DNA of 55,734 nucleotides from a virus, in the IMG/VR virus record IMGVR_UViG_3300033552_000009, positions 1 to 55,734 of that record. The stretch is one strand, 5' to 3'. Below are positions 1 through 54,018 of this stretch, piece after piece. The stretch's first letter is position 1; the number at the start of each line of letters is the position of its first letter. The position numbers and the translations under genes are program-made. The notes under the pieces were generated by a model. The model had not been told where the DNA came from. It ran no database searches and saw only the letters and a list, made by a program, of their open reading frames with translations.

Positions 1-127
1 ATTCGGGCTGCTGCGATTGATTCAGCCCACATTAGGGACTTAGCTGCTGAAAAGATTCGCGTCGGTACGCTGTATGGTCATACGCTTTCGGCCTCTGTAA
101 TCAACGGTGCAACCGTTAACGGCGGGG
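1..127. repeat. 127-nt terminal direct repeat, identical to 55608..55734; closure overlap of a circular or circularly permuted genome
   Basis: nt 1-127 (attcgggctgctgcgattg...accgttaacggcgggg) recur exactly as the last 127 nt. The ORF opening at 54015 stays in frame across the junction. Confidence 0.9.
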
Positions 128-606
128 TTGTCAATTCGCCGCAAATCAATTTTGGTTCGCTGAATGGTACAACCGGAAGTTTTTCGGGAGTTCTTACTGC
201 TAGCGCAATCAACGCGGTAAACACAATTAATCTTGCCGGTTTTTCTGTAACGGTTCCGATGTTTTCAGGTTGGACCGGTCAGGGTTCGGGGGCAAGAACT
301 TCGCAATCTTCCTCGCAATATTTTTTAGCTAATGCCGGTATTATTATTATCGGAACGGTTAGCGCAACTTCCCCCGGTACTGGATTTGACTTGAAGTGCC
401 AGTTTTTTGTAGTTAATGCTACTAGCGGAACTCTTTATACGCTTGATGCTTTTACTAGCTCAGGCACAAATAACGCAACTACAACGGGAAGTACCTATTT
501 TACGATTCCTACTGATGATTGGTATTATGTTTATAGTGTAGGAACAACTAATAGCGGTGGTTCTATTTCTAATTCTTCATTATCGGCATTTGGGGCAAAA
601 CGATGA
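1..606 (+). CDS. J-like host-specificity / central tail fibre protein, C-terminal part (same gene as 54015..55734; 732 aa once circularised)
   Basis: Frame 1 is open from nt 1 to the stop at 604-606. It is the in-frame continuation of the 54015 ORF (55608 maps to nt 1, both codon position 1). The Met at 259 in the ORF track is internal. The distal end is Ser/Thr/Gly-rich. Confidence 0.8.
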   Translation: MRAAAIDSAHIRDLAAEKIRVGTLYGHTLSASVINGATVNGGVVNSPQINFGSLNGTTGSFSGVLTASAINAVNTINLAGFSVTVPMFSGWTGQGSGARTSQSSSQYFLANAGIIIIGTVSATSPGTGFDLKCQFFVVNATSGTLYTLDAFTSSGTNNATTTGSTYFTIPTDDWYYVYSVGTTNSGGSISNSSLSAFGAKR

Positions 607-1217: not shown

Positions 1218-2076
1218 TCTACGAATCATTTACGACAATGCCGCTGACCGGGCAACCATAGTAGCCAGTTCTACAACGGGGCTTTTGGGTGTTCAAAACC
1301 TGAAAAGCGAAATCAAAGCCTTGCCGTTTCGTAGTGTGGGCACTTCAGTAACGCTTGATTTGTCATGGGCAACCAATGAGTATTTTGGCGGTTTATTCCT
1401 ACCTGCCAGTAATTTGACGCCACAAGCAACTTGCCGCATACTTGGATTTAGTGATTCTGCTCATTTAACTCAAATTTTTGATACCGGCGTTGCGTTTGCA
1501 AATCCCGGTTCTGCTTTAGGTCAGATAACGTTAGGTCAACCGTTAAACGCAAACGCGACAAGTAGCGATGGCACATTACCGCTAAACGCAAATTCGTTTG
1601 CTTATGGTGCTGGCGCAAAATGTATTCAATGGGCCAATCAGCAATATATCGTTAAATCGTTGCGAGTTATTTTAGATGACCCGCAAAATCCATTTGGCAA
1701 GATTGACATATCCCGATTGATAACTGGCGGTTATTGGTCCCCGCAACATAATGCGTCATACGGGGCCGAATTGATACCGGATGATAATTCTAAAATAACT
1801 AGAACAGATTCCCGCGATTTCATTGTTGACCGAAATGAAATCATTGACATTATGAAGTTTGATATTGAAGGAATGCCGTCTGTTGATAGGGCGGTTCTTA
1901 CCAAAATTATTAAGGGGGTTGGAACTTACCGTTCTATTTCCGTCTTTTTAATACCGACTGGCGATGACCCTTTGCTACAGCAAGATTCGTCAATATACGG
2001 CAAACGCGATAATTCGGGTATTCGTTTCACATCGTTTAACGCATATTCAAATTCATTTTATATTCAAGGGTGGTAA
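1210..2076 (+). CDS. tail-tip/fibre-associated structural protein, function unknown
   Basis: ATG 1210 overlaps the upstream stop at 1215-1217. The ORF-track start at 1186 is a TTG. It lies inside the tail-fibre cluster. Confidence 0.45.
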   Translation: MANLRIIYDNAADRATIVASSTTGLLGVQNLKSEIKALPFRSVGTSVTLDLSWATNEYFGGLFLPASNLTPQATCRILGFSDSAHLTQIFDTGVAFANPGSALGQITLGQPLNANATSSDGTLPLNANSFAYGAGAKCIQWANQQYIVKSLRVILDDPQNPFGKIDISRLITGGYWSPQHNASYGAELIPDDNSKITRTDSRDFIVDRNEIIDIMKFDIEGMPSVDRAVLTKIIKGVGTYRSISVFLIPTGDDPLLQQDSSIYGKRDNSGIRFTSFNAYSNSFYIQGW

Positions 2077-5000: not shown

Positions 5001-5093
5001 CAAGATATGTGGGCAAGCGTTCACGTAAACCATGAATTGACTGCCGCGCTTCGTGATGATCTGTCAAATTATGTCGGGGCATTCCGGCCATAA
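2079..5093 (+). CDS. tail fibre/spike: N-terminal fibre repeats, FN3, GH18 (class III chitinase/hevamine-like) barrel, C-terminal ConA/LamG-like lectin domain
   Basis: ATG 2079 follows AGGGTGG. There is a twofold T..ER.KLD...A.AT.N.TDA.L..R..HTG.Q fibre repeat, then an FN3-like stretch (PPTVVSTNTATSNSMTISYSAVNGSFGYQVERNG...YTWTVKT). Barrel-like motifs are VNVVYLFHA, KRVILTVGGAANGF and GGKIDGIDWNTFE, compared with hevamine LDGIDFDIE. Confidence 0.6.
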   Translation: MPVEKFYFGQPGPEYIQALNELWAVASVGGTSTGFTPTDRIKLDSIASSATVNQTDAVLKARANHTGTQSADTVTDGVTNKILTAAERTKLDSVAANATQNSTDATLRDRTTHTGFQPIASITGLQAALDAKQATTTFKTINGLSIVGTGDLAITGGGAATVTDVAGKTGNVVLVKADVGLANVDNTSDATKPVSALTQTALNNKQASLIAGTNIKNVNNQSIVGAGNINISALETVQTLTFANPIVWDASLGKIAKIVLTGTTPISLPTNLVPGWYALNVDQDAIGSRNLTWSAGYFIEAGLSLSTAPNTRDVLFFMSDGVEMYLASMAKGKSLVTGGAPALLAPPTVVSTNTATSNSMTISYSAVNGSFGYQVERNGVKVNTGSLTGLSFIDTGLNPSSSYTWTVKTLNSALVPGAASTGAVGTTSPAAAGDNNLMPMPANVVGMYFEVYEGSAITLLDIPAAVNVVYLFHARPGGPENPSGRFNADGTPIRSFNWDNSGDGTFVMPNAGEAHISIEKIRALRAAGKRVILTVGGAANGFNFNTRTRSLNFITSFKALVTQLGGKIDGIDWNTFEAYMRSVYANNPADCTANTAELVFISRTLRDFYGTSFSVTMPPTPDVFGTEAYRSPYDLVVAKALKDDGTLTYAAPQFYDTHFNKDVNYASGKIAQWCTALGEDKVVFGTSHGNLRGTFDDCLTAAENYREVDKFRLTNKPRGFFIWSMHDYVRLGFPAFLDTMVSKMGAPSAVVAPPAPTAAAVTNAFGHAGGQNGARFEMVAANLKQGTAATSATVTATGQYVGRVVDLSANDNSVSIVDPVPNFGFYRVVGAKTHVTFYQGMQSTTGGGSGENTANGFTLCVAVAPKEYYTHIWSDKSGAFTGRNLYYDADANGLVFSVGTGTARVTAVVGGLGVLYSAPTGTFNVKAWHDRTANTINLQVNGGTVVTTACPAFAAGSLNYAVGSQFGANNLETIQDMWASVHVNHELTAALRDDLSNYVGAFRP

Positions 5094-5177
5094 GTAAAAG
5101 CGGTTATGTGGGCAGAAATGCCCATATAATCCAATTTTCCTAACCCCCTTTATTCATTCCTTTATGGAGTTTTAATC

Positions 5178-6024: not shown

Positions 6025-8793
6025 GTGGCAACAGTAATTTCAGGCGTTAATTTCAACGCATCAACCGATGCTGCCACTTATACAACCGCATCATTTACGC
6101 CTGTCGCAAATGATCTGTTAATTATCTTTATTGGTATATCGGGGATGGGGACTAGCCCCGCCCTTTCTACCAATCTTGCCGGTGAAACTTTTACACTGGT
6201 TGAAGAAACCCCGCTAACGACAAATACAAGCAACATGCTTGTTTATATAGCTAATCAGCTTACGCCCGCAACGGCTAGGACGATTACCTATACACAAACT
6301 GGCGTAGCAACCGGCAATTGGATTCAAGTACATCGTATTGCAGGAATGTCCCGAACAGGACTTTCCGCGATTCGCCAAAAAGCTGAAACCGCAAACTCTG
6401 TGCTGAATGCTCAGTTAACGATGACGTTACCTGCTGCCGCGTTAACTGCAAATCCTTTATGCGCGGCATTCATAAATAACGGCACGGGTCCGGCTGCTCC
6501 TGCTGGCTGGACACTGGTTAGCGGGGTTTCTCGATCTTCCCCCACTACTCGTTGTGGTGCTTGGCACATTAATTCAGGCTTTACGGGTACGCTTGTTCAA
6601 AATGACCCGGCAACAAATAGCCCTACTTCTATTTCAGCAACGGTTGTTGAATTAGATACTTCGTCAGCTACCGTTCAAAATCCGCTTGCAGGCGCGGGAA
6701 CAGTTGAAGCAACCGGAACGGGACAAGCAACATTAGATAAGCCGCTTGCTAGTGCTGGCATTAATGAAGCAACCGGAACCGGTAATTTCGTTACCGCTGT
6801 ATTATTAAATTCAACCGGCGAAGTTGTTGCAACCGGAACCGGTGATTTGTCGGCAACGGTCCCGCCTGTTAATCTTGCCTCTGATGGCACGGTTGAATCA
6901 ACCGGAACAGGCAACGCGGCACTTGATAAACCGCTGGTCGGAAATGGCTTAAATGAAAGTACCGGAACCGGCGCTATTGCGCTTGAAATAACAATCGCTG
7001 CCGATGGCACAACAACCGCCACGGGAACCGCTGAAGTCTCGATAAGCAAGCCACTTGCCAGTTCTGATGCTGTTGAAGCTACGGGAACGGGCGCAATCGC
7101 TTTGGATAACCCCCTTGCTGCTGCTGGCGCGGTTGAAGCAACCGGAACGGCTGAATCGAGCATTGACAAACCGCTATCCGCAAGCGGCACGGTTGAAGCC
7201 ACGGTAATAGCTAACGAATCCGTTGAAAAGCCGCTGGCGTCTGCCGGGTCTGTTGAATCTACAGGCTCAGAAAATATTCAAGTAGCTATTATTTTGGCTG
7301 CTGAGGGCACGACTGAGACAACCGTAGCCGGGGATTTTACCCATACCCTAGCTGCAAATACTTCATTGGCGGGCGATGGGGCGGCAATTGCCACGGGGAC
7401 CGGCGAATTCGGCGTTGACAAGCCCCTTTCAGGCGCGGGTGATGGGGTAGCCACGGGTACAGGCGAAACGGCCTTAGACAAGCCCCTAGCGGCTGACGGC
7501 TTCGCAAGGTTTGCCCGATATATCCGCGACTATTTGAATTTTTCTGAAGGCAGTAGCACAAACGCTTGGATTGAAATTCAGGCGTATAACGCTGCCGGTG
7601 TAAATCTGGCTTTGGGTAAAACGGCTACGCTTGATACTGCTATTGGCGAAGGCACAACCGCATTAATTACCGATGGCAATTTAGACACGTTTCCTTATCT
7701 TGCCGCATATTCGGCCAATAACAACGTTACCGTTGATTTAGGTGCAATTCACGATATTACCTCTGTAAAGGTTTATCACTATTACGGTGACGGTAGAACA
7801 TATTTCGGAACAAAAACCCAAATTTCAGTTGACGGTGTAAGTTGGACAACCGTATTCGATAGCGCAATCTCAGGCACATACGCTGAAACCGCGTCAGGCA
7901 AATCAATTACTTTCGCGTCAGTAGAAGCAACGGGAACCGCTGACCTGTCAATAGGCAAGCCGCTAGCTGGCACGGGCGAAGCAATCGCCACGGGAACCGG
8001 TGAAATCGGGGCAGACAAGCCGCTTGCCGGGTCCGGTAGTGCAGACGTAGCCGGGACCGCTGAAACGGCCTTAGACAAGCCCTTAGCAAGTGCCGGTTCT
8101 ATAGAAGCCACGGTAATTGGCGATTTCACAATAGTTGGGCCTGCCGTTACTGATTTGGCGTCTGCCGGTATCGTTGAATCAACGGGAACCGGCGACATAA
8201 GCAAGGCGGTAATTCTTTCGGCTGACGGCTTTAGCACGGTGATTGGCGCGGGTGATCTTTACCAAACCGCCCTTCACGAATTGGGCGCGGCTGGCACAGT
8301 TGAAAGCACGGGAACGGGTGACACAATCCTAGCCGTTCCGTTAACTAGTGTGGGCAATGTCGAATCAACCGGCACAGCAAATATAAATGTTAGCACTAAC
8401 GTAAACATTGGCGCGATTGGTTCTGTTGAAACTACCGGAACCGGTTCGCTTTTGGTTGCTGTTGTCTTGTCGGCAAATGGCGAAATAGTTTCTACCGGCG
8501 ATGGCACTTTGGCAAAGGTTGTTGAATTGGGTAGTGCAGGGGATGGGGTTGTTGTCGGTGACGCTGACATACAAGCAATCAGATTATTTTATTCAAGCAC
8601 CCCTAGCAATCGAACAGTAAAATTCAAGGATTCCGCTAGTCAAGTAGTTATTTCTGCTTTGGCTAATTATGAAAAATACGGGTCAGTAAACAATTCTGAA
8701 GCTTACGGCACAAACTCAAACGCAATTGTCGTTGGGCCAAAAGACAACCGAATTGCTATACCCCCTAACCAAAATCAAATGAGAATCCAATGA
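6025..8793 (+). CDS. repeat-rich fibre/adhesin-like virion protein: about 26 tandem 20-aa repeats interrupted by an F5/8 type C (discoidin/CBM32-like) domain
   Basis: GTG start. The repeat unit is ATGTG-x5-(D/S)KPLA-x-xG-x-VE with a 20-aa period. The central segment NAWIEIQAYNAAG...ITDGNLDTFPYL...VTVDLGAIHDITSVKVYHYYGDGRTYFGTKTQISVDGVSWTTVF matches the discoidin pattern. Confidence 0.65.
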   Translation: MATVISGVNFNASTDAATYTTASFTPVANDLLIIFIGISGMGTSPALSTNLAGETFTLVEETPLTTNTSNMLVYIANQLTPATARTITYTQTGVATGNWIQVHRIAGMSRTGLSAIRQKAETANSVLNAQLTMTLPAAALTANPLCAAFINNGTGPAAPAGWTLVSGVSRSSPTTRCGAWHINSGFTGTLVQNDPATNSPTSISATVVELDTSSATVQNPLAGAGTVEATGTGQATLDKPLASAGINEATGTGNFVTAVLLNSTGEVVATGTGDLSATVPPVNLASDGTVESTGTGNAALDKPLVGNGLNESTGTGAIALEITIAADGTTTATGTAEVSISKPLASSDAVEATGTGAIALDNPLAAAGAVEATGTAESSIDKPLSASGTVEATVIANESVEKPLASAGSVESTGSENIQVAIILAAEGTTETTVAGDFTHTLAANTSLAGDGAAIATGTGEFGVDKPLSGAGDGVATGTGETALDKPLAADGFARFARYIRDYLNFSEGSSTNAWIEIQAYNAAGVNLALGKTATLDTAIGEGTTALITDGNLDTFPYLAAYSANNNVTVDLGAIHDITSVKVYHYYGDGRTYFGTKTQISVDGVSWTTVFDSAISGTYAETASGKSITFASVEATGTADLSIGKPLAGTGEAIATGTGEIGADKPLAGSGSADVAGTAETALDKPLASAGSIEATVIGDFTIVGPAVTDLASAGIVESTGTGDISKAVILSADGFSTVIGAGDLYQTALHELGAAGTVESTGTGDTILAVPLTSVGNVESTGTANINVSTNVNIGAIGSVETTGTGSLLVAVVLSANGEIVSTGDGTLAKVVELGSAGDGVVVGDADIQAIRLFYSSTPSNRTVKFKDSASQVVISALANYEKYGSVNNSEAYGTNSNAIVVGPKDNRIAIPPNQNQMRIQ
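6679..7500 (+). repeat. degenerate 60-bp tandem repeat block A (about 14 units) inside CDS 6025..8793
   Basis: Reiterated ...gaagcaaccggaaccgg...gataagccgcttgc... units, translating to the ATGTG/DKPLA 20-aa repeat. Confidence 0.8.
7915..8575 (+). repeat. degenerate 60-bp tandem repeat block B (about 12 units) inside CDS 6025..8793
   Basis: The same repeat family resumes after the discoidin domain (ATGTADLSIGKPLAGTGEAIATGTGEIGADKPLAGSG...). Confidence 0.75.
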
Positions 8794-9080
8794 TTAAAAC
8801 GTTCTACAAACAACCCCGCGAAGTCTTAGATTTTGACTTTCTATTTGCCGATTTTCTGAAAAGTAGAACCGATTCGTTGGCGTCAGCTTCAGTAACGGCT
8901 GAAGCAGGAATAACTCTTAATTCGGCATTTGTCATTGACGCATCGTTTGTCAAAGTCTTTACGTCAGGCGGGGTAAACGGACAAAAATATCTAGTTACCT
9001 GCATTGCTACAACCGTTGGCGGTAGAGTGCTTGAAGCAGAATTCTTTATTGCTATTAAAGAAATCAGTCGAACAGTGTAG
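8790..9080 (+). CDS. small conserved virion beta-sandwich protein (possible fibre adaptor)
   Basis: ATGA overlap with the upstream stop. The pattern K.P.E.LDFDF...L......S.SV....GIT......I....V.V..SGG..GQKYLVT...TT.GGR..E recurs in small proteins of phage tail-fibre loci. Confidence 0.4.
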   Translation: MIKTFYKQPREVLDFDFLFADFLKSRTDSLASASVTAEAGITLNSAFVIDASFVKVFTSGGVNGQKYLVTCIATTVGGRVLEAEFFIAIKEISRTV

Positions 9081-11061: not shown

Positions 11062-11064
11062 GGC

Positions 11065-15312: not shown

Positions 15313-15344
15313 ATAGCCCCCTTCAATCATTTACGAATTACCGC

Positions 15345-16070: not shown

Positions 16071-16095
16071 TTGGATATATTCCAGTTATTGAAAA

Positions 16096-18612: not shown

Positions 18613-18619
18613 TCATCCC

Positions 18620-40121: not shown

Positions 40122-40156
40122 TTTCCAAGTAATTAAAAATAACCTATACTTCGCCC

Positions 40157-41224: not shown

Positions 41225-41251
41225 TCAACCAATCGAAAGCAGGTAATCAAC

Positions 41252-41725: not shown

Positions 41726-41756
41726 TTGATTAACCATAATCAGAACGGAAACCAAA

Positions 41757-43955: not shown

Positions 43956-43956
43956 T

Positions 43957-44334: not shown

Positions 44335-44339
44335 TCCAA

Positions 44340-45073: not shown

Positions 45074-45089
45074 CTAGGAGTATTTCAAA

Positions 45090-46634
45090 ATGCCAAACAA
45101 AATTGACAGTAACGCAACTGGCCTTGCCATTGCCGAAGAATTGAGCCTAAAGGTTCTGCCGGGAACTGGCGGGGCAGATGCCGTTTGGTACGATCAAGAG
45201 CCAAACGGCTATCCGTCTTTCGGTGGTGAATTGTCAATGGTGGTCCGGTCCCCCATTAACGCATCACGGCAAGATCAAAAAGGTACTGCTACCGGCAATA
45301 CCGCAAACGGCGGCTTTACTGCTGACTTCACGAAATCGAACATGAAGCGTTTGCTTCAGGGTTTCTTTTTTGCCGATGGCCGGGAACTGGCAAGTACGCA
45401 ACCGTTGAACGGTGCCGCTGTTGTTTTGACTTCAGCCGTTGCCATTGATAAGTCGTATAACGCCGCTGCTGGTTTGGGTGTGTTTGCCGCAAACGATTTG
45501 ATTCTGGTTAGCGGTTTTGTCAATGCGTTGAATAACGGACTGAAAAACGTTGTTACTGTCGCTGCTGGCAAGATTACCGTTGCTGAAACTACGGTTGACG
45601 AAGCAACTGCCCCATCCGGTTCCCGCATTGAAAAAGTCGGCTATAAGCTTGCTGCCGGGGATGCCGGTATTGTTGTTTCGTCTGGTATCCCATCAATCAG
45701 CGTCACGGCTGGCGACTTCACCACGATGCCCGGTATGTTCCCCGGTAATTGGGTGTTCATTGGCGGTGACGTAGCGGCCAACCGGTTTGCTAATAATGTG
45801 GGCTTTGCACGAATCGCCACGGTTGCCGCTAAATCGTTGACGTTTGATGATACGACATTCACCCCCGTTACCGAAGCCGGAACCGGTAAAACAATCAATT
45901 TGTATATGGGTTCCGTTGTACGCAACGAAAAACTGGCAAGCCTTATCAAACGCCGGTCCTATCAACTTGAACGGCGTTTGGGCATGGGTGCAACCGCTAC
46001 TCAGGCCGAATACGTTGTTGGCGCGGTTCCGAATCAGTTCACCCTGAATATCCCGAAAGTGGATAAGCTGACCTGCGATATGTCCTTTGTTGGCTGCGAT
46101 ACCGAATATCGTACCGGTGAAGCTGGCGATACCGTCAAACCCGGCATTCACGTAGTTGGCACGGGCGAATCAGCCTATAACACTTCGTCAGACGTTTACC
46201 GCATCAAAATGTCCATTTTGAATGCTGGTACGTCAACCCCTTCGCCGCTTTTCGGTTATGTGGATGGGGCAAGCATTGCCATTGATAACGGCGTGACCCC
46301 TGATACTGCCGTTGGCGTATTCGGCGCGTTCGATTTGACAACCGGCAACTTTAAAGTAAGTGGTTCAATTACCGCTTTCTTTTCAACGGTATCGGCTGTT
46401 CAAGCTGTTCGGAAAAACTCTGACGTTGGCGTATCGGTAATCAGTGCCGCGAAAAATGCCGGTTTCGTGTTTGATATTCCGCTGGTTGGTTTGGGTGGTG
46501 GTATGGTCAATGTCGAAAAAGACAAGGCTATCCAAATTCCGCTGACCGCTGCCGGTGCCGAAAACAAAAACGGCTACACGATGCTTTCCGTTATTTATTC
46601 TTATCTGCCAACGGTTGCAATGCCCACATTCTAA
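45090..46634 (+). CDS. major tail (tube) protein, unusually large (514 aa)
   Basis: It uses the GGAGTATTTCAAAATG initiation region, lies between the tail terminator and the chaperone genes, and is followed by a terminator. Confidence 0.6.
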   Translation: MPNKIDSNATGLAIAEELSLKVLPGTGGADAVWYDQEPNGYPSFGGELSMVVRSPINASRQDQKGTATGNTANGGFTADFTKSNMKRLLQGFFFADGRELASTQPLNGAAVVLTSAVAIDKSYNAAAGLGVFAANDLILVSGFVNALNNGLKNVVTVAAGKITVAETTVDEATAPSGSRIEKVGYKLAAGDAGIVVSSGIPSISVTAGDFTTMPGMFPGNWVFIGGDVAANRFANNVGFARIATVAAKSLTFDDTTFTPVTEAGTGKTINLYMGSVVRNEKLASLIKRRSYQLERRLGMGATATQAEYVVGAVPNQFTLNIPKVDKLTCDMSFVGCDTEYRTGEAGDTVKPGIHVVGTGESAYNTSSDVYRIKMSILNAGTSTPSPLFGYVDGASIAIDNGVTPDTAVGVFGAFDLTTGNFKVSGSITAFFSTVSAVQAVRKNSDVGVSVISAAKNAGFVFDIPLVGLGGGMVNVEKDKAIQIPLTAAGAENKNGYTMLSVIYSYLPTVAMPTF

Positions 46635-46653
46635 ATAGACCGTGTGCTAAACT

Positions 46654-46687
46654 AAAAGCCCCTGATGGAAACGTTAGGGGCTTTTTC
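46654..46687 (+). terminator. rho-independent terminator after the major tail gene
   Basis: Stem agcccct/aggggct with a 12-nt loop, followed by ttttt. Confidence 0.75.
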
Positions 46688-46707
46688 AATTCACATAGGA
46701 TTTTCAA

Positions 46708-47127
46708 ATGACTATTTATTCCCAATTCCAAACGGACCCGGCTAAAGAAAACGACGGCGTACCAATCGAATATGGCTTGAATGATGATGGCACAGTGCCA
46801 ACGTTTGTTATTTCGCGTACCAATCGCAATAACAAAGTTTACGCCGCTGCCGTTGACCGCGAAACTAAACCTATTCGCCGCATGTTGGACAGTGGCAATC
46901 TGCCGCCCGCGCAAGCCGATAAGGTTTATTTGAAAATCTTTGTGAAATCAATCCTGAAGGGTTGGACAAACGTTTTCGGCAAAGACAATGAACTGCTGCC
47001 GTACAACGAAGAAAACGCAATGGTTCTGATGCAGGATTTGCCTGACCTGTATGACGAATTGCAAGACGCATCCAAGCGCGTTGCTAACTTCCGGCTTGAG
47101 TCGTTGGAAGTTGAAGCAAAAAACTAA
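46708..47127 (+). CDS. tail assembly chaperone (gpG-like, zero-frame product)
   Basis: 139 aa, directly upstream of the tape measure region. It ends with the slippery site plus TAA. Confidence 0.7.
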   Translation: MTIYSQFQTDPAKENDGVPIEYGLNDDGTVPTFVISRTNRNNKVYAAAVDRETKPIRRMLDSGNLPPAQADKVYLKIFVKSILKGWTNVFGKDNELLPYNEENAMVLMQDLPDLYDELQDASKRVANFRLESLEVEAKN

Positions 47128-47456
47128 TTGAGGTTCTGTTTTATGTTATGGATTTGGGCGAATCCGAACAACGAATAATCAAACAGGCGATACGGGCGGG
47201 TAATCCAATTCCAGACCGTATCGCCAATAAACCAGACCTAATGATTGGGTTAGACCTGTACTTAATGGCGTATTTTGATTTAAGTACAGAAAGACCCCCT
47301 TCAATGACAATTAGCCCGATTCCGATAAGCAAGATGAAAGAATACGCGCTTTATTGGAATTTAGAGTTTGAACAAACCGAAGATTTGATTTACCTGATTC
47401 GCAGAATGGATGTATCGAATATCGAGCGAATTATTGAAAGTCAACCGAAAAAGTAA
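46708..47456 (+). CDS. tail assembly chaperone -1 frameshift fusion (gpGT-like; 46708..47124 joined to 47124..47456)
   Basis: The downstream ORF is in the -1 frame, with no stop between the slip site and ATG 47148 and only a distant SD for independent initiation. G/GT synteny is conserved upstream of tape measure genes. Confidence 0.6.
47118..47124 (+). promoter_or_regulatory. -1 programmed ribosomal frameshift slippery heptamer A AAA AAC
   Basis: The zero frame reads gca aaa aac taa. The -1 frame is open from 47124 (cta att gag gtt ctg ttt tat gtt atg...) into ORF 47148..47456. Confidence 0.7.
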
Positions 47457-47467
47457 GGTTATTTAAA

Positions 47468-47899
47468 ATGGCAACTTTGAAAGACTTAACTAGACGCATG
47501 AATGCGGTAAGTAAGAATATCGAAGTTGCCGCTTCAAATAAGGTTAAAGAAGTTGTTGCCGTAATGGTCAACCATTTAGCTTACCATACCCCCGTTGATA
47601 CCTCGCAAGCCCTGTCAAACTGGCAGGCGTCTATTAACTCCCCGAACCTTGCAACCGTGGCTGCCCACGTTCCGGGGATGCTTGGCTATACCATGACAGC
47701 CAGCGCACAAGAAACAGTGGCTAGGGCCGCGAATGTCGTTAAACTCAAGCAACCCGGCCAATCCGTTTATATAAGCAATAATTTAGATTACATTCGTAAA
47801 CTAGAAAACGGCGGGTGGTCTAAGCAACCGGGCGGCATGATGGCTGGCGCGATAATGCTAGGCAGGCGCAAAGCAAAAACAAAACTTGAAGGTATTTAA
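47468..47899 (+). CDS. HK97 gp10-like tail-component protein
   Basis: LAYHTPVDTSQALSNWQ and VYISNNLDYIRKLENGG match the gp10-family P.DTG.L / YA..VE.G pattern. Confidence 0.5.
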   Translation: MATLKDLTRRMNAVSKNIEVAASNKVKEVVAVMVNHLAYHTPVDTSQALSNWQASINSPNLATVAAHVPGMLGYTMTASAQETVARAANVVKLKQPGQSVYISNNLDYIRKLENGGWSKQPGGMMAGAIMLGRRKAKTKLEGI

Positions 47900-50800
47900 T
47901 GTCCGATGAATCCCCAATCATTGTTGAAGTTGTTGATAAGGTTGCCCCCTCAATTAAGGCAAATTTGCGGGAAATTGGCGAAATGGGCGAAAAAGCCTAT
48001 TTGTCAATTGACAAGCTTAAAAATGCTTTAGCCAACGTCAGCAAAGGGAATCCGGTTTCTGAATTGCAGGCGCAATTAAAGAAAATGGAAAGCGCATTGG
48101 CGTTAAGCATTACCGCGCAAGACAAGGCAAATCTTGCCACACTGAAGGCCGAAACGGTCCAACAGAAATTAGCGATTGCCCAAAATAACGCGGCTGCGTC
48201 AGCCCAAAAATTAGCTGCCGAACAAGCCCGAACGGCTAAGGCGTTGACAGATTCGCAAGCCGCGTCTGACCGTGCCGCCGCTGCCGCATTGCGGTTGCAA
48301 AACGCGCAAGACGCTGCTGAAAAGGCCGCTCTGCGTTTGGCGAAAGGCAATCAAGCCAGTAGCAATGCCATGCAGGCAAACGGTATATCAGCGCGGGATA
48401 TGACGAATAGGCTGCGTACCATCCCTATGCAAATGACCGACATTATTGTTTCGCTGCAAGGCGGGCAAGCGCCGTTGACGGTTTTGTTACAGCAAGGTGG
48501 TCAACTTAAAGACGTTTTCGGCGGGATACTTCCCGCATTGAAAGCCGTAGGCGGTTATCTGCTGACATTCGTTAGCCCCCTGACTTTGATTGCTGCTGCT
48601 GTTGCTGGTTTGGCATTTGCCTTTAATGCGGGTCAAACTGAATTGCTTGATTTTCAGAATGCCGCAACCATGACCGGTAATTCTATCGGTTTAACTAATA
48701 GTCAGTTTTCGGAAATGACTAACGCCATTTCGGCCATTGCAGGCACAAAAGGCAAAGCTGCGGATGCCCTTACCGAAATCGCCAAAGCAGGCAATCTTAC
48801 CGGGTCTGAGATTCAGAACATTGCCACAACTGCCGTTCTAATGGAAAAGGCAACCGGGCAAGCATTGTCAAAAACCGTTGAACAGTTTTCGGAACTGGCA
48901 AAGGAACCGGTCAACGCATCCCTGAAATTAAACGAAACCTATCAGTATTTGACCGCATCAACGTATGAACAGATCAAAGCGTTGACCGAACAGGGGAATA
49001 AATTAGCCGCTGCCGAACTGGCTGAAAAAAGCTACGCCGATGCCATGACCGGGCGGGCAAAGCAGGTTGTAGAGAATGTGGGCTATATGGAAAGGGCGTG
49101 GCGTGGTCTGTTAGGCACTGTCAAAGGTGTTTGGGACTACATGAAGAATATTGGCCGGGAATCGTCAACCGGCGACAAGCTGGCTTCGCTGCAAAAACAA
49201 TTGGCCGATGTTGAAGGCGCTACGCCTAAGTATGGCGCAAAGGGTGATGCGGCTAAAGAGAATCAAGCGGGCAAGTTAAAAGATCAAATTAACTTATTGC
49301 AGGAACAAGACCGCCTGTTGAAAAAGGGCAATGAGCGTCAGGTTGAAGCAAACGAAACGCGGGAAAAAACCCTGCAAGCTGCCGTTAGGGTTGACGCTGT
49401 ATTAAAGCAAACCGAAACCAATAAAGAAAAGCGCGACAAGCTGAGTATGCAAACCCGTAAAGATATGGTTTTGCTTGGCAAAAGCGAAGTTGAAATTCAA
49501 AAGGCGCTTTCAAACATTCAGGATAAGTACAAAGACCCCAAAGGTCCGAAAGCTAAAAGCACTACAATCTTTACCGAAAATGAACAGTTGATTGCTTCGA
49601 TTAAGCGAGTTTCCGCAAGTATTCAAGAAGAATACAATCAACAGGATAAGCTTACAAAAGTTGAACAATTTGCAGCTAAAACTAACGCGGATATTTCATC
49701 TAGCAAATTTAAATATTCAAAAGAAACATTGGCGTTGAAAGACGCATTGCTTGAAGAAATGAAAGCTACTGAAGCATTAAATCTTCAGCGGGTAGCTGGT
49801 AATAAGGCGCTAGAAGAAAACGTTAAAAATCGTCAAATTGACATTGATAAAACGATTAAAGATATTGAACAAATCGAAGATCAAATAAATAAACAGATTG
49901 ACCACAATAATTCAATATTGATGACAAAAGAGGCAACCGCCCAATTAAGTGCAGAGCGTGAACGGGAAGGGTTGATTATTCAGGAATTGGCGGCTATCAA
50001 AAAGTATGACCGCGATTTAGATATTGAAAGCTACGATTGGACAATGAAGCGCATTGCGTCATTGCGGCAATTGGCCGATTTGAAGCAACGGGGCGGGATG
50101 CTGGAAACTGCTGCATCCGAAGCCAAAGAAGCAGAAAAAGAATGGTCTAAATTTAACACTTCGCTATATAACGGAATTGTTGACAATTTAGAACGTGCTT
50201 TTAAAAAGGGTTCCGGCTTTTTCAATTCGCTTTGGCAAGGTATTAAAGACGCATTCAGGGGAACTGTACTTAAACTGTTAATTCAGGGTTCGGTTACTAC
50301 GGCTGCTAGCGCAATGGGTATGAGTGGTTTGGCGCAAGCGGGTAGCGCATTTACAAACGGGTCGAACCTGATTTCAGGTATTGGCAACCTTTTTAGCGGT
50401 GGTGGAATCGGTTCTAGTGCTGCTGGCATGTTGGGTTCGGGAATTAGTTCGCTTTTCGGCGCAACGGCTGGAAATGCGGCCATTGGCGGGGCTTTGGGCC
50501 TTGGTAGTGGTTCTGCTACTGCCGCCGCCCTTGCGGCTGCTCAGGCAGGGGGCGCAACGCTTACAGCGGGCGCTACGGCAATGGCGGGTTCAATGGCTAG
50601 CCTTGGCTCTACCCTTGCCGCTGTCGCCGGTCCTATCGGGCTGGCAATCGTTGCCGGTAGTCTGATTTCTGGAATGATGTCGAAAAAAGACGCCCGGTTT
50701 GGGGGAACCTATTCTATGGGTGCAAACGGTGAAGCCGCATATCGTCACGGACCTGTCAAAGGGTTCGGCGGGGATTCTGGCGTAGCTGCAAACATTACAG

Positions 50801-52563
50801 GGGCCGCACGGGGCATTAATGCGCTGTTTAAAGGCATGGGGTCAAGCCTGTCATTGTCAGGCTATCAAGCAGGCTCAGAAACGTCTAACAAAGGCCGGGG
50901 CGGGGTTATGGCTGGCGGTACGCTGTCAAACGGCATGACCTTTGGCGAAAGCGGGCAGGGTAGCAATTACAACGGCACGTATTATGAACGTTCTAGTTCC
51001 CAATCGCCTGACGCTGCAACCGCTGCCGCGAATCTGGCAACTGATCTTAAACAATCAGTTATTCAAGCAATGCAGGCCGCTGCCGGGTCAATCCCCAAAC
51101 TTATATCAGATCAAGTACGCGGCATAGATGCAGAATCCCTTAGTGACGATGCCGCAAGCGCAATCATTGCAAACATTGAAGCGCAAGTTAAAGCAGTTGG
51201 CGAATTCCGCGAAGCTTTGAAATCTCTGCCGTTTGAAAATCTTAAAAGCCTTAGCTTTGATGCCGCTGCCGGTCTAATTGAGGCTTCAGGCGGTTTGCAA
51301 TCTTTGTCAAATAACTTAAAAAGCTATTACGATAATTTCTATACTGAAGAAGAAAAGATTGCTAATACCCGCAAAAACATTTCTAGCCAATTGCAAAATG
51401 CCGGGTTGAATGTCAGCACTCAAGACTTGTCGGAAATGTCTCGTAAAGACTTTAGGACGATGGTTGAAGCGCAAGACGTTAATACTGAAAGCGGTAGAAA
51501 AGCATTCGCCGCTTTAATGAGCGTAAATGGCGCATTTGCTGAATTGACAAAAGAGGCTGACGGCATGAGTGAAGCCGCTAAAAAGCTAGCCGATATTATG
51601 GATGGCTTGCGGGAACGGACAATGGAATTGCGTATTCAAGCCGAACGGGCATTGGGCAACGGCTCACGCGCTGATTCTATGCAACGGGCCATTGATACTA
51701 AAGGGTACGATGCCGCCGCACTAGCAATCTACGATTACAACGCCGCACTTGAAAAACAGATTCAAGTTACCGCTACTGCAAAAGAGGCTTTGATTCAAGC
51801 CTACAAAACGGAAGTTGATTCGATGCAGGCTACGGTAAGCAAGTTTACCGATTTCGCAAAGAGTCTTACCCAATTCCGCGAAGGTCTGCTGATAGGTGAC
51901 AAGTCGCCGCTGTCCCCTATGCAGCAATACGCGCAAGCCCAATCGAATTTTGCTGACCTGTCGAACAAGGCTAAAAACGGTACGCCTGCCGAACGTGAAG
52001 ATGCAATGTCTAAATTGCAGTCTGCCGCCACTACCTTGCTTGATATGTCAGCCGTCATCAATGCAAGCGGTTCCGGTTATACAAGCGATTTCGCAACCGT
52101 ACAGGGTGCGCTTAAAGACGCATCAATTTCTGCGTCTGCTACAGCCAGCGTAGCGCAATTGCAGCTTGACGCCGCACAACGTCAGGTTGATTTGCTAACC
52201 GGAATCAATAGCGCGGTGGTTAGTGTGGGCGCTGCTTTGAATAGCTATCGTGACGAAATGATTAACTTAGGCAGAGTAAATGCTGCCGGGGCTAATGCTG
52301 AAATAGTTTATGCTGCCGAACTGGCTGCTAGAAGTGCAAACAATGGCGCTAGCGGTGGCGGTGGTCAAGTCATGAACAACATGGAATTTACAAAAGCCAT
52401 GCAAGATTTGAAAAACGAAATGGCAATGCTTAGGACACAAAACGAATCGAATACGAATTCAATTGTTCAAGGCAATTACGATGCTAACGCACAAAACGCA
52501 AATCGCGTTGCCGAAGAACAAGCACGGCAATACTGGCTTACCCAAAAAACAAAGTTGAATTAA
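47899..52563 (+). CDS. tape measure protein
   Basis: 1554 aa, with long coiled-coil stretches. A Gly/Ala/Ser-rich hydrophobic glycine-zipper block lies around nt 50280-50690. It sits after the chaperones. Confidence 0.85.
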   Translation: MSDESPIIVEVVDKVAPSIKANLREIGEMGEKAYLSIDKLKNALANVSKGNPVSELQAQLKKMESALALSITAQDKANLATLKAETVQQKLAIAQNNAAASAQKLAAEQARTAKALTDSQAASDRAAAAALRLQNAQDAAEKAALRLAKGNQASSNAMQANGISARDMTNRLRTIPMQMTDIIVSLQGGQAPLTVLLQQGGQLKDVFGGILPALKAVGGYLLTFVSPLTLIAAAVAGLAFAFNAGQTELLDFQNAATMTGNSIGLTNSQFSEMTNAISAIAGTKGKAADALTEIAKAGNLTGSEIQNIATTAVLMEKATGQALSKTVEQFSELAKEPVNASLKLNETYQYLTASTYEQIKALTEQGNKLAAAELAEKSYADAMTGRAKQVVENVGYMERAWRGLLGTVKGVWDYMKNIGRESSTGDKLASLQKQLADVEGATPKYGAKGDAAKENQAGKLKDQINLLQEQDRLLKKGNERQVEANETREKTLQAAVRVDAVLKQTETNKEKRDKLSMQTRKDMVLLGKSEVEIQKALSNIQDKYKDPKGPKAKSTTIFTENEQLIASIKRVSASIQEEYNQQDKLTKVEQFAAKTNADISSSKFKYSKETLALKDALLEEMKATEALNLQRVAGNKALEENVKNRQIDIDKTIKDIEQIEDQINKQIDHNNSILMTKEATAQLSAEREREGLIIQELAAIKKYDRDLDIESYDWTMKRIASLRQLADLKQRGGMLETAASEAKEAEKEWSKFNTSLYNGIVDNLERAFKKGSGFFNSLWQGIKDAFRGTVLKLLIQGSVTTAASAMGMSGLAQAGSAFTNGSNLISGIGNLFSGGGIGSSAAGMLGSGISSLFGATAGNAAIGGALGLGSGSATAAALAAAQAGGATLTAGATAMAGSMASLGSTLAAVAGPIGLAIVAGSLISGMMSKKDARFGGTYSMGANGEAAYRHGPVKGFGGDSGVAANITGAARGINALFKGMGSSLSLSGYQAGSETSNKGRGGVMAGGTLSNGMTFGESGQGSNYNGTYYERSSSQSPDAATAAANLATDLKQSVIQAMQAAAGSIPKLISDQVRGIDAESLSDDAASAIIANIEAQVKAVGEFREALKSLPFENLKSLSFDAAAGLIEASGGLQSLSNNLKSYYDNFYTEEEKIANTRKNISSQLQNAGLNVSTQDLSEMSRKDFRTMVEAQDVNTESGRKAFAALMSVNGAFAELTKEADGMSEAAKKLADIMDGLRERTMELRIQAERALGNGSRADSMQRAIDTKGYDAAALAIYDYNAALEKQIQVTATAKEALIQAYKTEVDSMQATVSKFTDFAKSLTQFREGLLIGDKSPLSPMQQYAQAQSNFADLSNKAKNGTPAEREDAMSKLQSAATTLLDMSAVINASGSGYTSDFATVQGALKDASISASATASVAQLQLDAAQRQVDLLTGINSAVVSVGAALNSYRDEMINLGRVNAAGANAEIVYAAELAARSANNGASGGGGQVMNNMEFTKAMQDLKNEMAMLRTQNESNTNSIVQGNYDANAQNANRVAEEQARQYWLTQKTKLN

Positions 52564-54018
52564 ATGACTAATAAAGAGTTTAAAGAATGGCTGTCAAAAC
52601 ATGATTCAATTCGATGCCTATTAGTTGAATTAACTGTTATGACTGACGGCGGGCTTGTAACTCGATATTTGTCAACAAAAGGTTTTGTTACCGGTACGGG
52701 TGACGTTCCCGAAAACACGGCGTACCTTCCAATTATTACCGGTGAATTTACAGTAACTGAAGAATTGTCGCTTGACGGCACAGCGTCAATCGGGTACGGC
52801 GATATTGAAATAAATAACGATGCCGGTCAATATGACAGTTGGCTTAAAGAAGGTTGGAATAACCAATCAATTAACGTTTATTTAGGCGATGTTCGCTGGT
52901 TACGGGGCGCGTTTAAACGTATCTATTCCGGCGCAATTTCTCGCATTGATAGCCGTACCCGCACCCGGCTAAATATCAAACTGCACGACAAGCTACAGTT
53001 TTTGAATAAGCCGCTTGTCGAAAACAAAGTTGGGGGAACCGGTGAAAACCGTGACGTACTGAAGCCCATTTGTTATGGCGAAGTGCATAACGTCAAGCCT
53101 GTAATGATTGATTCTGTTCTGCTGAAATATGCAGTTCACACGGGCGCAATCGAACGAATTATTGAAGTCAGGGATGACGGCAACCCGGTTCCGTTCCTTC
53201 AGGATATTGCAACGGGTACGTTCACCCTTTACTCTAAACCGCGTGGCTTGATTACAGCCAGCGTTCAAGGTGATAAAGCAGGGGGAATCTATACGAATAA
53301 TGTGGGCGAAATAATCAGACGAATAATTAAGTTGAATGGCTTTACTGACGCTGATCTTGATTTGGTTATCTGGAATGAATTTATACAGCTATATCAACAA
53401 CCTGTAGGCATTTACGTAACCGAACGAATTAACACGTTGCAAATTTGTGCTGAATTAGCGTCAAGTATTAACGCAACGTTGTTAATGAATAGCGATAGCA
53501 AAGCGTTTTTGTTCAAGATGAAAATGCCCACATTAAGCACGAATGAAGTGACGAATCAGGTCATGACTTCAGATTCATTTGAAATCTTAGACCGTCCTGA
53601 TATTCAGGCCGCTTTCAAAGTCGGCTATTGCAAAAACTGGACAGTTCAAGAGAATTTGCTTACCGGAATTCCCGAAGCCCATAAGCTTTATTTTGCTAAG
53701 GAATGGCTGTCCCATACTGAAGTAAATACAGTTTCAGCGGCTGCTAATAAACTTTCAGTTGCGCCTATTCAAAAGGACACATATTTATTAACCGAATTTG
53801 ACGCTATCGTTTTATCAAAAGAATTGGTTGATCTATGGTCAACGCCTAAAACGGTTTTTGGCTACGGGGGCGCACCATATTTAATAATTGAACAATTAGG
53901 GTCATCACAAAAGATTTGGCATACCCGTTTTGATTTTTCCAATAGTAAACTAGGGCTAGTCATAGGCATTCAGCGAAAGTACATTGAAGGCCGTGCCGTT
54001 ATTAAGGTTCTAGCATGA
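52564..54018 (+). CDS. distal tail / tail-tip hub protein
   Basis: 484 aa, between the tape measure and the J-like protein. The TAAATG junction follows the TMP stop. Confidence 0.5.
   Translation: MTNKEFKEWLSKHDSIRCLLVELTVMTDGGLVTRYLSTKGFVTGTGDVPENTAYLPIITGEFTVTEELSLDGTASIGYGDIEINNDAGQYDSWLKEGWNNQSINVYLGDVRWLRGAFKRIYSGAISRIDSRTRTRLNIKLHDKLQFLNKPLVENKVGGTGENRDVLKPICYGEVHNVKPVMIDSVLLKYAVHTGAIERIIEVRDDGNPVPFLQDIATGTFTLYSKPRGLITASVQGDKAGGIYTNNVGEIIRRIIKLNGFTDADLDLVIWNEFIQLYQQPVGIYVTERINTLQICAELASSINATLLMNSDSKAFLFKMKMPTLSTNEVTNQVMTSDSFEILDRPDIQAAFKVGYCKNWTVQENLLTGIPEAHKLYFAKEWLSHTEVNTVSAAANKLSVAPIQKDTYLLTEFDAIVLSKELVDLWSTPKTVFGYGGAPYLIIEQLGSSQKIWHTRFDFSNSKLGLVIGIQRKYIEGRAVIKVLA

Follow-up and report, generated by a model that had tools for sequence, protein, structure and literature searches.

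Throughout the viral genome IMGVR_UViG_3300033552_000009, examined here over a stretch of 55,734 nucleotides (the window), one short word recurs at dispersed positions on both strands, which raises the question of what reads it and why it is maintained. The 9-mer AATGTGGGC has 20 matches in the window, or 19 without a 127-bp terminal duplicate, compared with 0.76 expected from dinucleotide shuffles (shuffle maximum 3), 0.31–0.37 from Markov models of orders 0, 2 and 3, and 1.45 at order 4. Its core, TGTGGGC, has 41 matches (40 unique), where shuffles predict 7.5 and a Markov model of order 3 predicts 3.6, and at k = 7–10 nothing else in the genome is over-represented as strongly as the TGTGGGC word. 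These counts confirm a previous sequence-only reading of the same DNA, which had reported 19 dispersed copies of the 9-mer (about 0.4 expected) and about 40 of the core (about 7 expected). The one-mismatch relatives that it listed (AGTGTGGGC, seven copies; ATTGTGGGC, eight; TATGTGGGC, two) and two longer exact duplicates embedding the word are exact as claimed, and all its coordinates are correct except 46621, which should read 46622. It had also proposed comparison with composition-aware Markov models, of which orders 0–4 predict far fewer copies than are seen. Orders 5–7 'predict' 11–19 copies, figures that are circular and inflated because the underlying 6- to 8-mer counts derive from the motif copies themselves; they leave the enrichment unrefuted.

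The full motif in the window phage is 5'-(T)A-D-TGTGGGC-W-3', most commonly as AATGTGGGC, and across phages it takes the form A-N-TGTGGGC-W; the core of seven invariant bases (T-GTGG-GC) with its flanks spans 8–11 nt overall. All sites are given in Table 1. A compositional or codon artefact was rejected in view of the shuffles, Markov orders 0–4, enrichment over GC contents of 0.36–0.58 and site conservation above background, and recent internal duplication was rejected because the flanks of the copies are unrelated. The DnaA box has only TGTGG in common with the word, and the GGTTCCGG and GGCTCCGG 'words' of some relatives are tandem coding repeats of no relevance here. Real DnaA boxes are present in Me-ZS1, in a local iteron cluster that is a repeat of another kind.

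Table 1 Core sites (TGTGGGC on the + strand, GCCCACA on the − strand) and replication genes of the window; sequences in the first column are the 9-mer versions
Feature	Position	Strand	Remarks
Core site GCCCACA, AATGTGGGC (25–33)	25–31	−	intergenic
Core site TGTGGGC, AGTGTGGGC	1335–1341	+	
Core site, other 5' flank	2882–2888	−	
Core site, TATGTGGGC	5008–5014	+	
Core site, TATGTGGGC	5107–5113	+	intergenic
Core site, AGTGTGGGC	8349–8355	+	
Rest of replication cassette co-occurring with word	9064–18533	−	DNA polymerase, clamp, SF2 helicase, Cas4-domain exonuclease, DUF3268, SSB, Sak4-like protein, DUF7173
Core site, ATTGTGGGC	9391–9397	−	
Core site, other 5' flank	9434–9440	+	
Core site, AGTGTGGGC	11898–11904	+	
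Core site, ATTGTGGGC	13051–13057	−	
Core site, AATGTGGGC	13982–13988	+	
Core site, AATGTGGGC	15202–15208	−	
Core site, ATTGTGGGC	15827–15833	+	
Primase-helicase, 774 aa	18819–21143	+	AEP catalytic domain, helix-bundle domain, SF3-type helicase; proposed word reader
Core site, ATTGTGGGC	20138–20144	+	within primase gene
Core site, ATTGTGGGC	20261–20267	−	
Core site, AATGTGGGC	20737–20743	+	
Core site, ATTGTGGGC	21649–21655	−	
Core site, other 5' flank	23094–23100	+	
Core site, AGTGTGGGC	23678–23684	+	3' arm of terminator hairpin 23658–23684
Core site, AATGTGGGC	25196–25202	−	5' arm of terminator hairpin 25196–25233
Core site, AATGTGGGC	25227–25233	+	3' arm of terminator hairpin 25196–25233, then T5
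Core site, AATGTGGGC	25951–25957	+	
Core site, AGTGTGGGC	26414–26420	+	
Core site, ATTGTGGGC	28813–28819	+	
Core site, AATGTGGGC	32334–32340	+	
Core site, AGTGTGGGC	33166–33172	−	
Core site, AATGTGGGC	34882–34888	+	kept in L002
Core site, AATGTGGGC	37112–37118	−	in large terminase gene; kept in L002, L003, L005, L007
Core site, AATGTGGGC	37789–37795	+	intergenic, terminase/portal; kept in L002, L003
Core site, other 5' flank	38534–38540	−	kept in L002
Core site, ATTGTGGGC	39650–39656	−	lost in L002
Core site, AATGTGGGC	40396–40402	+	
Core site, AATGTGGGC	43956–43962	+	across TAA stop / GTG start junction; syntenic copy in L003
Core site, AATGTGGGC	44484–44490	−	
Core site, AATGTGGGC	45797–45803	+	
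Core site, AATGTGGGC	46622–46628	−	previously given as 46621
Core site, AATGTGGGC	49077–49083	+	
Core site, AGTGTGGGC	52224–52230	+	
Core site, AATGTGGGC	53301–53307	+	
Core site, AATGTGGGC	53526–53532	−	
Terminal-duplicate copy of site at 25	55632–55638	−	127-bp assembly overlap

Seven of the 40 core sites are intergenic or at gene boundaries, 14 lie in one sense frame ([N/S/I]-V-G), eight in one antisense frame (A-H-x) and the remaining 11 are spread over four further frames. The word had been described as frame-independent, which it is not. That the constraint acts on the DNA and not on a peptide is upheld by comparison with the relative L002 (85% nucleotide identity), in which 10 of 11 sites are kept against a background of 39.5% (P = 7e-4); the terminase-gene site persists in four relatives. 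The sites are under purifying selection, with individual sites turning over. Two hairpins, at 25196–25233 (−22.3 kcal/mol, z = −3.3) and 23658–23684 (about −18 kcal/mol, with one full word copy only), are each followed by a run of five U. Both hairpins fold, as had been suggested, but the arrangement is apparently no general property of the word, because 25196/25225 is the only exact inverted pair and the single-copy hairpin is the only other case among the 40 sites.

The same word is found in phages of widely different hosts. TGTGGGCA ranks first among the over-represented 8-mers of Xanthomonas phage Suba (21 copies versus 1.0 expected), Pseudomonas phage vB_PaeS_C1 (20 versus 0.3), E. coli phage FtMidnight (16 versus 0.66), Variovorax phage BAPIC_0004 (20 versus 0.3) and Rhodobacter phage RcSpartan, and of the majority of 66 IMG/VR loci that encode a primase homologue (GC 0.36–0.58); the loci L092, L132–134, L144, L156 and L164 have such a homologue without the word. 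Further hosts, beyond those of the phages examined for the word, occur among the primase matches. The hosts of the phages carrying the core word (E. coli, Pseudomonas aeruginosa, Xanthomonas, Variovorax and Rhodobacter) represent three proteobacterial classes. Where the primase is more divergent the variant TGTGGTCA is enriched instead, namely in a YuA-like Pseudomonas phage (31 versus 1.3 expected), E. coli phage 9g (30 versus 2.1) and the L047 group. Me-ZS1 and Shewanella S0112, with primases 37–39% identical to that of the window, show weak enrichment of TGTGGA-type words (TGTGGAC in Me-ZS1, 27 versus 9.6). A megablast search of the window against cultured phages returned no match, and a single-protein scan of IMG/VR returned no relative.

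These data bear directly on two roles first suggested for the word, a host DNA uptake sequence and a host RecBCD/AddAB Chi taken up by the phage. Like Chi (GCTGGTGG), Neisseria DUS and Pasteurellaceae USS, which are over-represented, dispersed 8–12-mers under selection on DNA and not protein, with some copies as inverted pairs in terminators, the word is over-represented on both strands, and a terminator is built from its one inverted pair, a common arrangement in USS/DUS. Those, however, are words of host genomes read by host machinery, whereas the window word belongs to a phage lineage whatever the host and is evenly spaced on each strand. A sample of 50 kb from E. coli K-12, host of the relative FtMidnight, shows no enrichment of TGTGGGC (4 versus 4.6 expected) and no copy of TGTGGGCA, while Chi itself occurs 14 times (7.5 expected). 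The same core is shared by phages of unrelated hosts from three classes and tracks the phage replication cassette, and we know of no USS/DUS dialect or Chi sequence that it matches. Both suggestions fail on these grounds, and a host-derived word is almost certainly the wrong explanation. The proposed search for the word in hosts and related phages thus gave enrichment in the phages and none in the K-12 sample; the word is a cis-element of the phage lineage. The third role suggested at the outset, a site at which some phage protein binds or primes, is the one that the evidence favours.

Within the phages, the word goes with the replication gene cassette and not with head or tail genes. Septimatrevirus-like phages have the word and the window's replication genes at 34–53% amino-acid identity (primase 50–53%), and do not share its large terminase, portal and capsid genes. 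Phages that have the window's head genes without its tail-tube genes lack the word in the stretches fetched, outside which their replication genes lie, and L047-type phages combine the window's head module, the cassette and the variant word without the tail-tube genes. A packaging or terminase signal was rejected because word and head genes do not travel together, and a link to the tail module because L047-type phages keep the variant word without tail-tube genes. The tail region of the L047-type phages includes a 442-aa ORF, a candidate sheath gene. The SF2 helicase and Cas4-domain exonuclease accompany the word in every lineage examined, DUF7173 is missing in Bonzee and DUF3268 in Suba, and the trees of the primase, SF2 helicase, Cas4-domain exonuclease and Sak4 each split TGTGGGC from TGTGGTC phages. 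Because the whole cassette is inherited together, co-occurrence and protein trees cannot single out the primase.

The sites are spaced strand by strand. Same-strand gaps are more even than random in five complete genomes (per-strand CV 0.27–0.60 versus about 0.9; P ≤ 0.014 each); spacing is even on both strands of phage 9g and on the richer strand of the YuA-like phage, the other strand of which has a CV of 0.67 (P = 0.09). Across 56 non-redundant loci the gap CV is 0.43 versus 0.79 at random, and spacing exceeds random evenness in 96% of strand sets (P = 3e-10). Neighbouring sites on one strand are a median of 2.5 kb apart, and 1.6% of these gaps are shorter than 500 bp, where 16.7% would be expected. 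Spacing is much less even when both strands are pooled, and opposite-strand sites can be 31–194 bp apart, so that a site on one strand is no substitute for one on the other. The strand bias is moderate and genome-wide (25 + and 15 − in the window; 19:7 in both Suba and FtMidnight), and no orientation switch was seen along the genome, sites of both strands occurring along its whole length. This strand-specific distribution is compatible with lagging-strand priming.

Per-strand evenness that is much weaker on pooling would be unexpected for a protein reading duplex DNA. We consider it very unlikely that the sites bind another small conserved phage protein for genome organisation or regulation, the candidates being the product of the 69-aa ORF upstream of the primase gene and DUF7173. 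DUF7173 does co-occur with the word, apart from the absence in Bonzee (and of DUF3268 in Suba) noted above, and in FtMidnight, Me-ZS1 and S0112 the gene immediately upstream of the primase carries the annotation of a small DNA-binding/HTH gene; the window's 69-aa ORF in that position matched no family, and the sites are mostly intragenic and in both orientations relative to transcription.

The virion DNA of T5, phiKMV-like phages and phage tf has localised single-strand interruptions (nicks), which share strand-specific placement with the word and likewise have an asymmetric conserved consensus of about 9 nt scattered through the genome and its coding DNA. The T5, phiKMV-like and tf nicks lie on one strand only, as is reportedly the case in tf, and are few (4–14), whereas the word has 26–40 regularly placed sites per genome on both strands, and the window's 40 sites are divided between the strands. 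For phage tf, PMC3517423 gives 14 nicks at a 9-nt consensus. Opposite-strand nicks 31–43 bp apart, as some sites would produce, would amount to fragile near-double-strand breaks. A search of the window for a dedicated nicking enzyme yielded only a VRR-NUC / resolvase-like nuclease, and the word tracks the replication cassette, making nicks a distinctly unlikely explanation.

Among the cassette proteins, the primase-helicase is the most likely reader of the word, with priming predicted to start there, judging by its characterised relatives. Its sequence matches NrS-1 PrimPol (E about 1e-28) and PDB entry 7OLA ('DNA primase'; E 2e-31), which we take to be the SaPI5 primase-helicase, and its alignment conserves FIDLD, SPSGxGLH and RxMTxTG blocks, presumably the AEP catalytic motifs. 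Pfam family PF22763, the NrS-1 helix-bundle domain, is present in most primase homologues and matches the window protein weakly (E 0.0011). An alignment-based AlphaFold model (pLDDT 90.7), used in place of one from the sequence alone (pLDDT 38, discarded), has a helical bundle at residues 195–306. Over both domains it is matched by NrS-1 N300 (E 3e-17) and by the pRN1 primase (E 1e-7, and 3e-6 for the complex with the first two base pairs). As modelled, the enzyme has the predicted two-domain AEP and helix-bundle fold of the NrS-1/pRN1 primases. According to PMC8718748, NrS-1 PrimPol prefers template 5'-GTGG-3' for priming and uses an 8-nt site as well, with the start at the first base 5' of the site; its template sites are given as 5'-GTGG/GTGA-3' and 5'-TTTGGTTA-3'. 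For pRN1 (ORF904), PMC13469122 describes priming only at GTG immediately 3' of the initiation site, and in its 5'-C-T-GTG model template the initiating ATP appears paired to the T adjoining GTG. The layout of the word, T-GTGG-GC, has a T directly 5' of GTGG, at the initiation position of both enzymes. The predicted likeness extends to recognition on one strand, while the word is longer, with seven invariant bases plus flanks, and differs in its occurrence in a very large phage group, strong over-representation and even per-strand spacing, features unmentioned for NrS-1/pRN1 in the accessible text of these papers.

We consider that the word is probably, though with much room for doubt, an extended primase recognition site setting the starts of Okazaki fragments. 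On single-stranded template DNA, GTGG(GC) would be recognised by the helix-bundle domain of the AEP-type PrimPol, and the primer would be started opposite the conserved T that directly adjoins it on the 5' side. Selection keeps about one site per 2–2.5 kb on the strand that serves as lagging-strand template when forks travel the way late transcription runs, and about one per 3–6 kb on the other strand; with strand-wise spacing kept in this way, the sites would set the beginnings of Okazaki fragments. Several observations weigh against priming. The primase is linked to the word through a cassette inherited together, some primase-homologue loci lack the word, and Me-ZS1 and S0112 have only the weak TGTGGA-type enrichment. 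Most known primase sites are 3–5 nt, and one of 8–11 nt would be unusual, though NrS-1 has its 8-nt site. Sites on both strands genome-wide without an origin switch also mean that a primase site requires forks moving both ways everywhere, which could arise, for example, via recombination-dependent replication.

Other cassette members could instead read the word as a phage-encoded Chi-like signal, recognised directionally on one strand by the SF2 helicase / Cas4-domain exonuclease, perhaps with Sak4, and this we consider unlikely. The word would then make the complex stop degrading DNA and turn to recombination, or would label phage DNA as self. The constant company of these two enzymes, a strand-specific function needing both orientations, and selection that maintains the number of sites while single sites turn over, as for Chi, are all in keeping with such a signal. 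Yet we know of no precedent for sequence recognition by Cas4-type nucleases or such SF2 helicases, which the signal would require; bacterial Chi is not known for even spacing, and even spacing with few short same-strand gaps fits regular starts better than a stop signal; and the T-GTGG layout matches the primase relatives specifically. There is likewise a small chance that the word is a phage 'self' signal through which helicase, Cas4 nuclease and Sak4 protect phage DNA or direct recombination-dependent replication while wordless host DNA is degraded. If so, it would be the first virus-owned Chi-like system, common to Septimatrevirus-like, YuA-like and 9g-like (Queuovirinae) phages.

A primase start site would have a counterpart in T7. 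The sites of the T7 gp4 primase (5'-GGGTC / TGGTC / GTGTC-3') are strand-specific and set Okazaki-fragment starts, and both systems have short strand-specific words and a fused primase-helicase in a phage replisome. They differ in that the T7 enzyme is a DnaG/Toprim-type primase with a zinc finger, whereas that of the window is an AEP, and in that T7 sites are 5 nt long and frequent by chance; we know of no report of selection for their even spacing. No description of the word or its arrangement was found in the searchable literature, where even per-strand spacing at about 2–3 kb is apparently undescribed; the sole phage paper found to contain the word (PMC3483164) does so by accident, in a table of ribosome-binding sites.

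If the word is a primase start signal, a large and medically relevant phage group (Pseudomonas Septimatrevirus-like and YuA-like phages, E. coli 9g and its relatives, and Xanthomonas, Variovorax and Rhodobacter phages) writes its Okazaki-fragment starts into the genome sequence, which would then reveal which way forks preferentially move and how long the fragments are. An odd limit on codon choice in coding DNA would be explained, recoding or refactoring of these genomes would have to preserve the words, and a primase with 8–11 nt specificity would be a possible laboratory tool. The word also serves as a simple metagenome marker for the replication module.

The window is a phage genome, complete at 55.6 kb, that comes from a metagenome assembly. 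Its two ends (1-127 and 55608-55734) are exact 127-bp copies of each other; they overlap because the assembly is circular or terminally redundant, so that the genome measures 55,607 bp. Structural genes include those for a terminase, portal, capsid, 514-aa tail tube protein and tape measure protein, and the replication cassette on the opposite strand encodes a DNA polymerase, clamp, SF2 helicase, Cas4-domain exonuclease, DUF3268, SSB, Sak4-like protein and DUF7173, followed by the gene for a 774-aa primase-helicase on the + strand. A scan of about 45 of the roughly 70 ORFs found no gene for an integrase, a methyltransferase, an HNH nickase or 7-deazaguanine synthesis, and no cultured phage close to the window at the DNA level was found. 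The genome is a mosaic, in which the head module and the Septimatrevirus-like replication, neck and tail-tube genes differ in kinship. The uncultured family sharing the head module is distantly related to phiEt88/DIBBI-type phages. The early intergenic region (21900-24850) is AT-rich, with a GC content of about 0.37-0.42, and its repeated boxes may be promoters or operators. A further repeat, GGTTCCGGT (6772-8434), occurs six times in the window, including four copies on the - strand within the tail fibre-like gene.

Features located in the window and cultured phages in which the 8-mer form of the dispersed word was counted
Feature or phage	Position in window	Host	Description
Tail fibre-like gene	6025-8793		922 aa
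Septimatrevirus-like part	9064-21143 and 43449-47899		replication, neck and tail-tube genes
TTAATTAAT(T) boxes	21940, 22288, 22587, 24037, 24801		repeated, AT-rich early intergenic region
Head module	36377-42725		large terminase, portal, MuF-like protein, capsid; relatives are a large uncultured family
Suba		Xanthomonas	TGTGGGCA 21 against 1.0 expected
vB_PaeS_C1		Pseudomonas aeruginosa	TGTGGGCA 20 against 0.3 expected
FtMidnight		E. coli	TGTGGGCA 16 against 0.66 expected
BAPIC_0004		Variovorax	TGTGGGCA 20 against 0.3 expected

There are 20 copies of the dispersed 9-mer AATGTGGGC in the window (19 once the terminal overlap is removed), against expectations of 0.76 from dinucleotide shuffles, 0.31-0.37 from Markov models of orders 0, 2 and 3, and 1.45 from order 4, bearing out the enrichment claimed in the sequence-only reading. 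Models of orders 5-7 'predict' 11-19 copies because their sub-word counts derive from the motif copies themselves; being circular, they do not refute the enrichment. The core TGTGGGC is present in 41 copies (40 unique) against 7.5 (shuffles) or 3.6 (Markov order 3), and a word with this core is the most over-represented in the genome at all k from 7 to 10. The coordinates, variants and duplicates reported earlier were all correct except that 46621 should read 46622, and each of the two proposed hairpins folds, with a U5 run after it. The description of the word as frame-independent does not strictly hold, as 14 of the 40 core sites lie in one sense frame ([N/S/I]-V-G) and eight in one antisense frame (A-H-x), with 11 spread over four other frames and seven intergenic or at gene boundaries.

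The word recurs in relatives of widely differing base composition. The metagenomic relative L002 (portal 88% identical) carries nine copies of the 9-mer in 14.5 kb, and L003 (portal 61% identical, GC 0.55 vs roughly 0.45 for the window) has nine copies of the 8-mer form TGTGGGCA against 0.25 expected, part of the copies in these two being syntenic with those of the window. L003 is a 56-kb contig (JAOPXB010000357.1) of GCA_025965375.1, binned as a 'Marmoricola sp.' MAG; it is probably mis-binned and resembles a complete phage genome of the window's family. The replication cassette is similar to those of the Septimatrevirus group and Xanthomonas phage Suba (primase identity 50-53%), and TGTGGGCA is again the top 8-mer in Suba, vB_PaeS_C1, FtMidnight and BAPIC_0004. 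TGTGGGC is found 12 times in 21.7 kb of Rhodobacter phage RcSpartan (0.75 expected). Of 66 IMG/VR loci that surround primase homologues (GC 0.36-0.58), most have TGTGGGCA in first or second place among their over-represented 8-mers. A host uptake sequence or host Chi had been put forward earlier. In a 50-kb sample of E. coli K-12, TGTGGGC occurs four times against 4.6 expected and TGTGGGCA is absent, while true Chi occurs 14 times against 7.5 expected in the same sample; the word is the top word in phages of several hosts. These counts exclude both proposals, and a host-derived word is scarcely credible; the word belongs to the phage lineage rather than to the host.

All replication genes and the neck and tail-tube genes are common to the window and the Septimatrevirus-like phages; the large terminase, portal, MuF-like protein, capsid and tape measure are not. 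IMG/VR phages with the head genes of the window and without its tail-tube genes showed no word in the fetched stretches, which exclude their replication genes. The uncultured L047-type phages have the head genes, lack the tail-tube genes and carry the variant TGTGGTCA; a 442-aa ORF in their tail region may be a sheath. They also possess the primase (32-36% identity), DUF7173 and Sak4 and, where the fetched stretch extends that far, SSB, Cas4-domain exonuclease and SF2 helicase. This distribution across head and tail gene combinations excludes a packaging function, the word being present in Septimatrevirus-like phages without the large terminase, portal and capsid of the window, and a tail function, the variant word being present in L047-type phages without its tail-tube genes. 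The word follows the replication cassette, and every cassette gene tree separates TGTGGGC phages from TGTGGTC phages. Cassette genes are co-inherited, and co-occurrence gives no means of telling the primase apart from the helicase, nuclease or Sak4; a Chi-like signal for the phage's own helicase / Cas4-nuclease shares this association, and we regard it as unlikely.

On each strand the sites are evenly spaced, a feature absent from the sequence-only reading. In every one of the five complete genomes, same-strand gaps had a coefficient of variation (CV) of 0.27-0.60, where random placement would give about 0.9; P was ≤ 0.014 in each case and below 0.001 in several. Regularity was weaker when both strands were pooled, and sites on opposite strands can lie 31-194 bp apart. 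Across 56 non-redundant IMG/VR loci the gap CV was 0.43 vs 0.79, with 96% of strand sets evener than random (P = 3e-10), a median same-strand gap of 2.5 kb (10th-90th percentiles 1.2-4.7 kb) and only 1.6% of gaps below 500 bp against 16.7% expected. The strand that is sense for the structural genes is always the richer (25:15 in the window, 19:7 in Suba, 19:7 in FtMidnight), and its site density is constant through the block of oppositely transcribed replication genes. From evenness per strand together with this constancy it follows that the function is strand-specific, needs sites at regular intervals and is independent of transcription. Duplex binding sites for another small protein, a reading without such a strand requirement, are very improbable. 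L002, at 85% nucleotide identity, keeps 10 of 11 sites intact but only 39.5% of all 7-mers (P = 7e-4), and the site at 37112 is retained in four relatives; other sites turn over with density maintained. Selection thus acts on the word sites.

NrS-1 PrimPol (E about 1e-28) and PDB 7OLA (E 2e-31) both match the primase-helicase over its N-terminal third, and conserved blocks of the AEP domain align among them. The 7OLA entry bears the name 'DNA primase'; we take it to be the SaPI5 primase-helicase. Most primase homologues contain the NrS-1 helix-bundle domain (PF22763). An alignment-based AlphaFold model (pLDDT 90.7) places a helical bundle (residues 195-306) after an alpha/beta domain. Over both domains it matches NrS-1 N300 (E 3e-17) and pRN1 primase (E 1e-7 and 3e-6), the pRN1 matches including the complex with the first two base pairs. 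Priming by NrS-1 PrimPol is most efficient at template 5'-GTGG-3'; the enzyme recognises an 8-nt site (5'-TTTGGTTA-3') as well, and its starting position is the first base 5' of the site (PMC8718748). The pRN1 primase primes only at a GTG directly 3' of the initiation site, the GTG being read by the helix-bundle domain; in its 5'-C-T-GTG model template we read the initiating ATP as pairing with the T beside GTG (PMC13469122). Both published specificities fit the word of the window, laid out as T-GTGG-GC.

We therefore lean, by a little, towards the word being an extended recognition and initiation site of the phage PrimPol-helicase, placed at Okazaki-fragment intervals on both strands; the leaning is slight because we infer the link between enzyme and word and the cassette is inseparable by comparison. 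The enzyme would recognise the word and initiate there, with sites kept at such intervals on both strands. Sites on the + strand would serve forks travelling in the direction of late transcription, and their excess would suggest that most forks are co-directional with the late genes. Localized nicks at the word, a further strand-specific reading, seem quite unlikely. Sites recognised by primases are an established class of element. In the searchable literature, which leaves most subscription journals uncovered so that an earlier report is possible, we found no description of the word, nor, within the same coverage, of an 8-11 nt primase site that a large group of phages conserves, with strong over-representation and even spacing per strand. 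The word's one occurrence in the phage papers searched, in a ribosome-binding-site table of Burkholderia phage KL1, is accidental (PMC3483164).

The motif derived from the five complete genomes is 5'-(T)A-D-TGTGGGC-W-3', with an invariant 7-nt core, hardly any enrichment of single-mismatch versions and no C at base -1; the preferred -1 base varies by lineage, being A in the window, T in Septimatrevirus and mostly C in the relative L007. TGTGGTCA occurs 31 times against 1.3 in a YuA-like Pseudomonas phage (primase 32% identical) and 30 times against 2.1 in E. coli phage 9g (26% identical). Spacing is even on both strands of 9g and on the richer strand of the YuA-like phage, the other strand being non-significant (CV 0.67, P = 0.09). 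Weak TGTGGAC and TGTGGAA words were seen in Microcystis phage Me-ZS1 and Shewanella S0112, respectively. At 48300-48950 Me-ZS1 also has 11 TTATGAACA iterons in both orientations, interleaved with DnaA-box-like TGTGGATAA, a cluster that resembles a replication origin and is another type of repeat than the dispersed word. Serratia phage Bonzee, whose primase/polymerase gave no alignment with that of the window, carries another dispersed word, A-A-GTGGTGGAA (16-19 copies vs 0.2-0.3 expected), which includes GTGG and is less regularly spaced. The 'words' GGTTCCGG and GGCTCCGG (L042 19296-19560; L018, L051) were rejected as tandem 6-nt coding repeats.

GATC is scarce in the window, with 58 copies where about 213 would be expected. 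Since 45 of the 58 copies share the context TGATCT/AGATCA, TTGATCT(T) comes out as another 'over-represented' word (23 vs 3.2). FtMidnight, vB_PaeS_C1 and BAPIC_0004 (41-43 kb each) have no GATC, with about 160 expected. In Me-ZS1, 9g and the YuA-like phage, the same cassette has an insertion of 7-deazaguanine synthesis genes (QueC/D/E, FolE, TGT-like enzyme) that parts the clamp gene from the helicase gene; the YuA-like phage has GATC in excess (365 vs 185).
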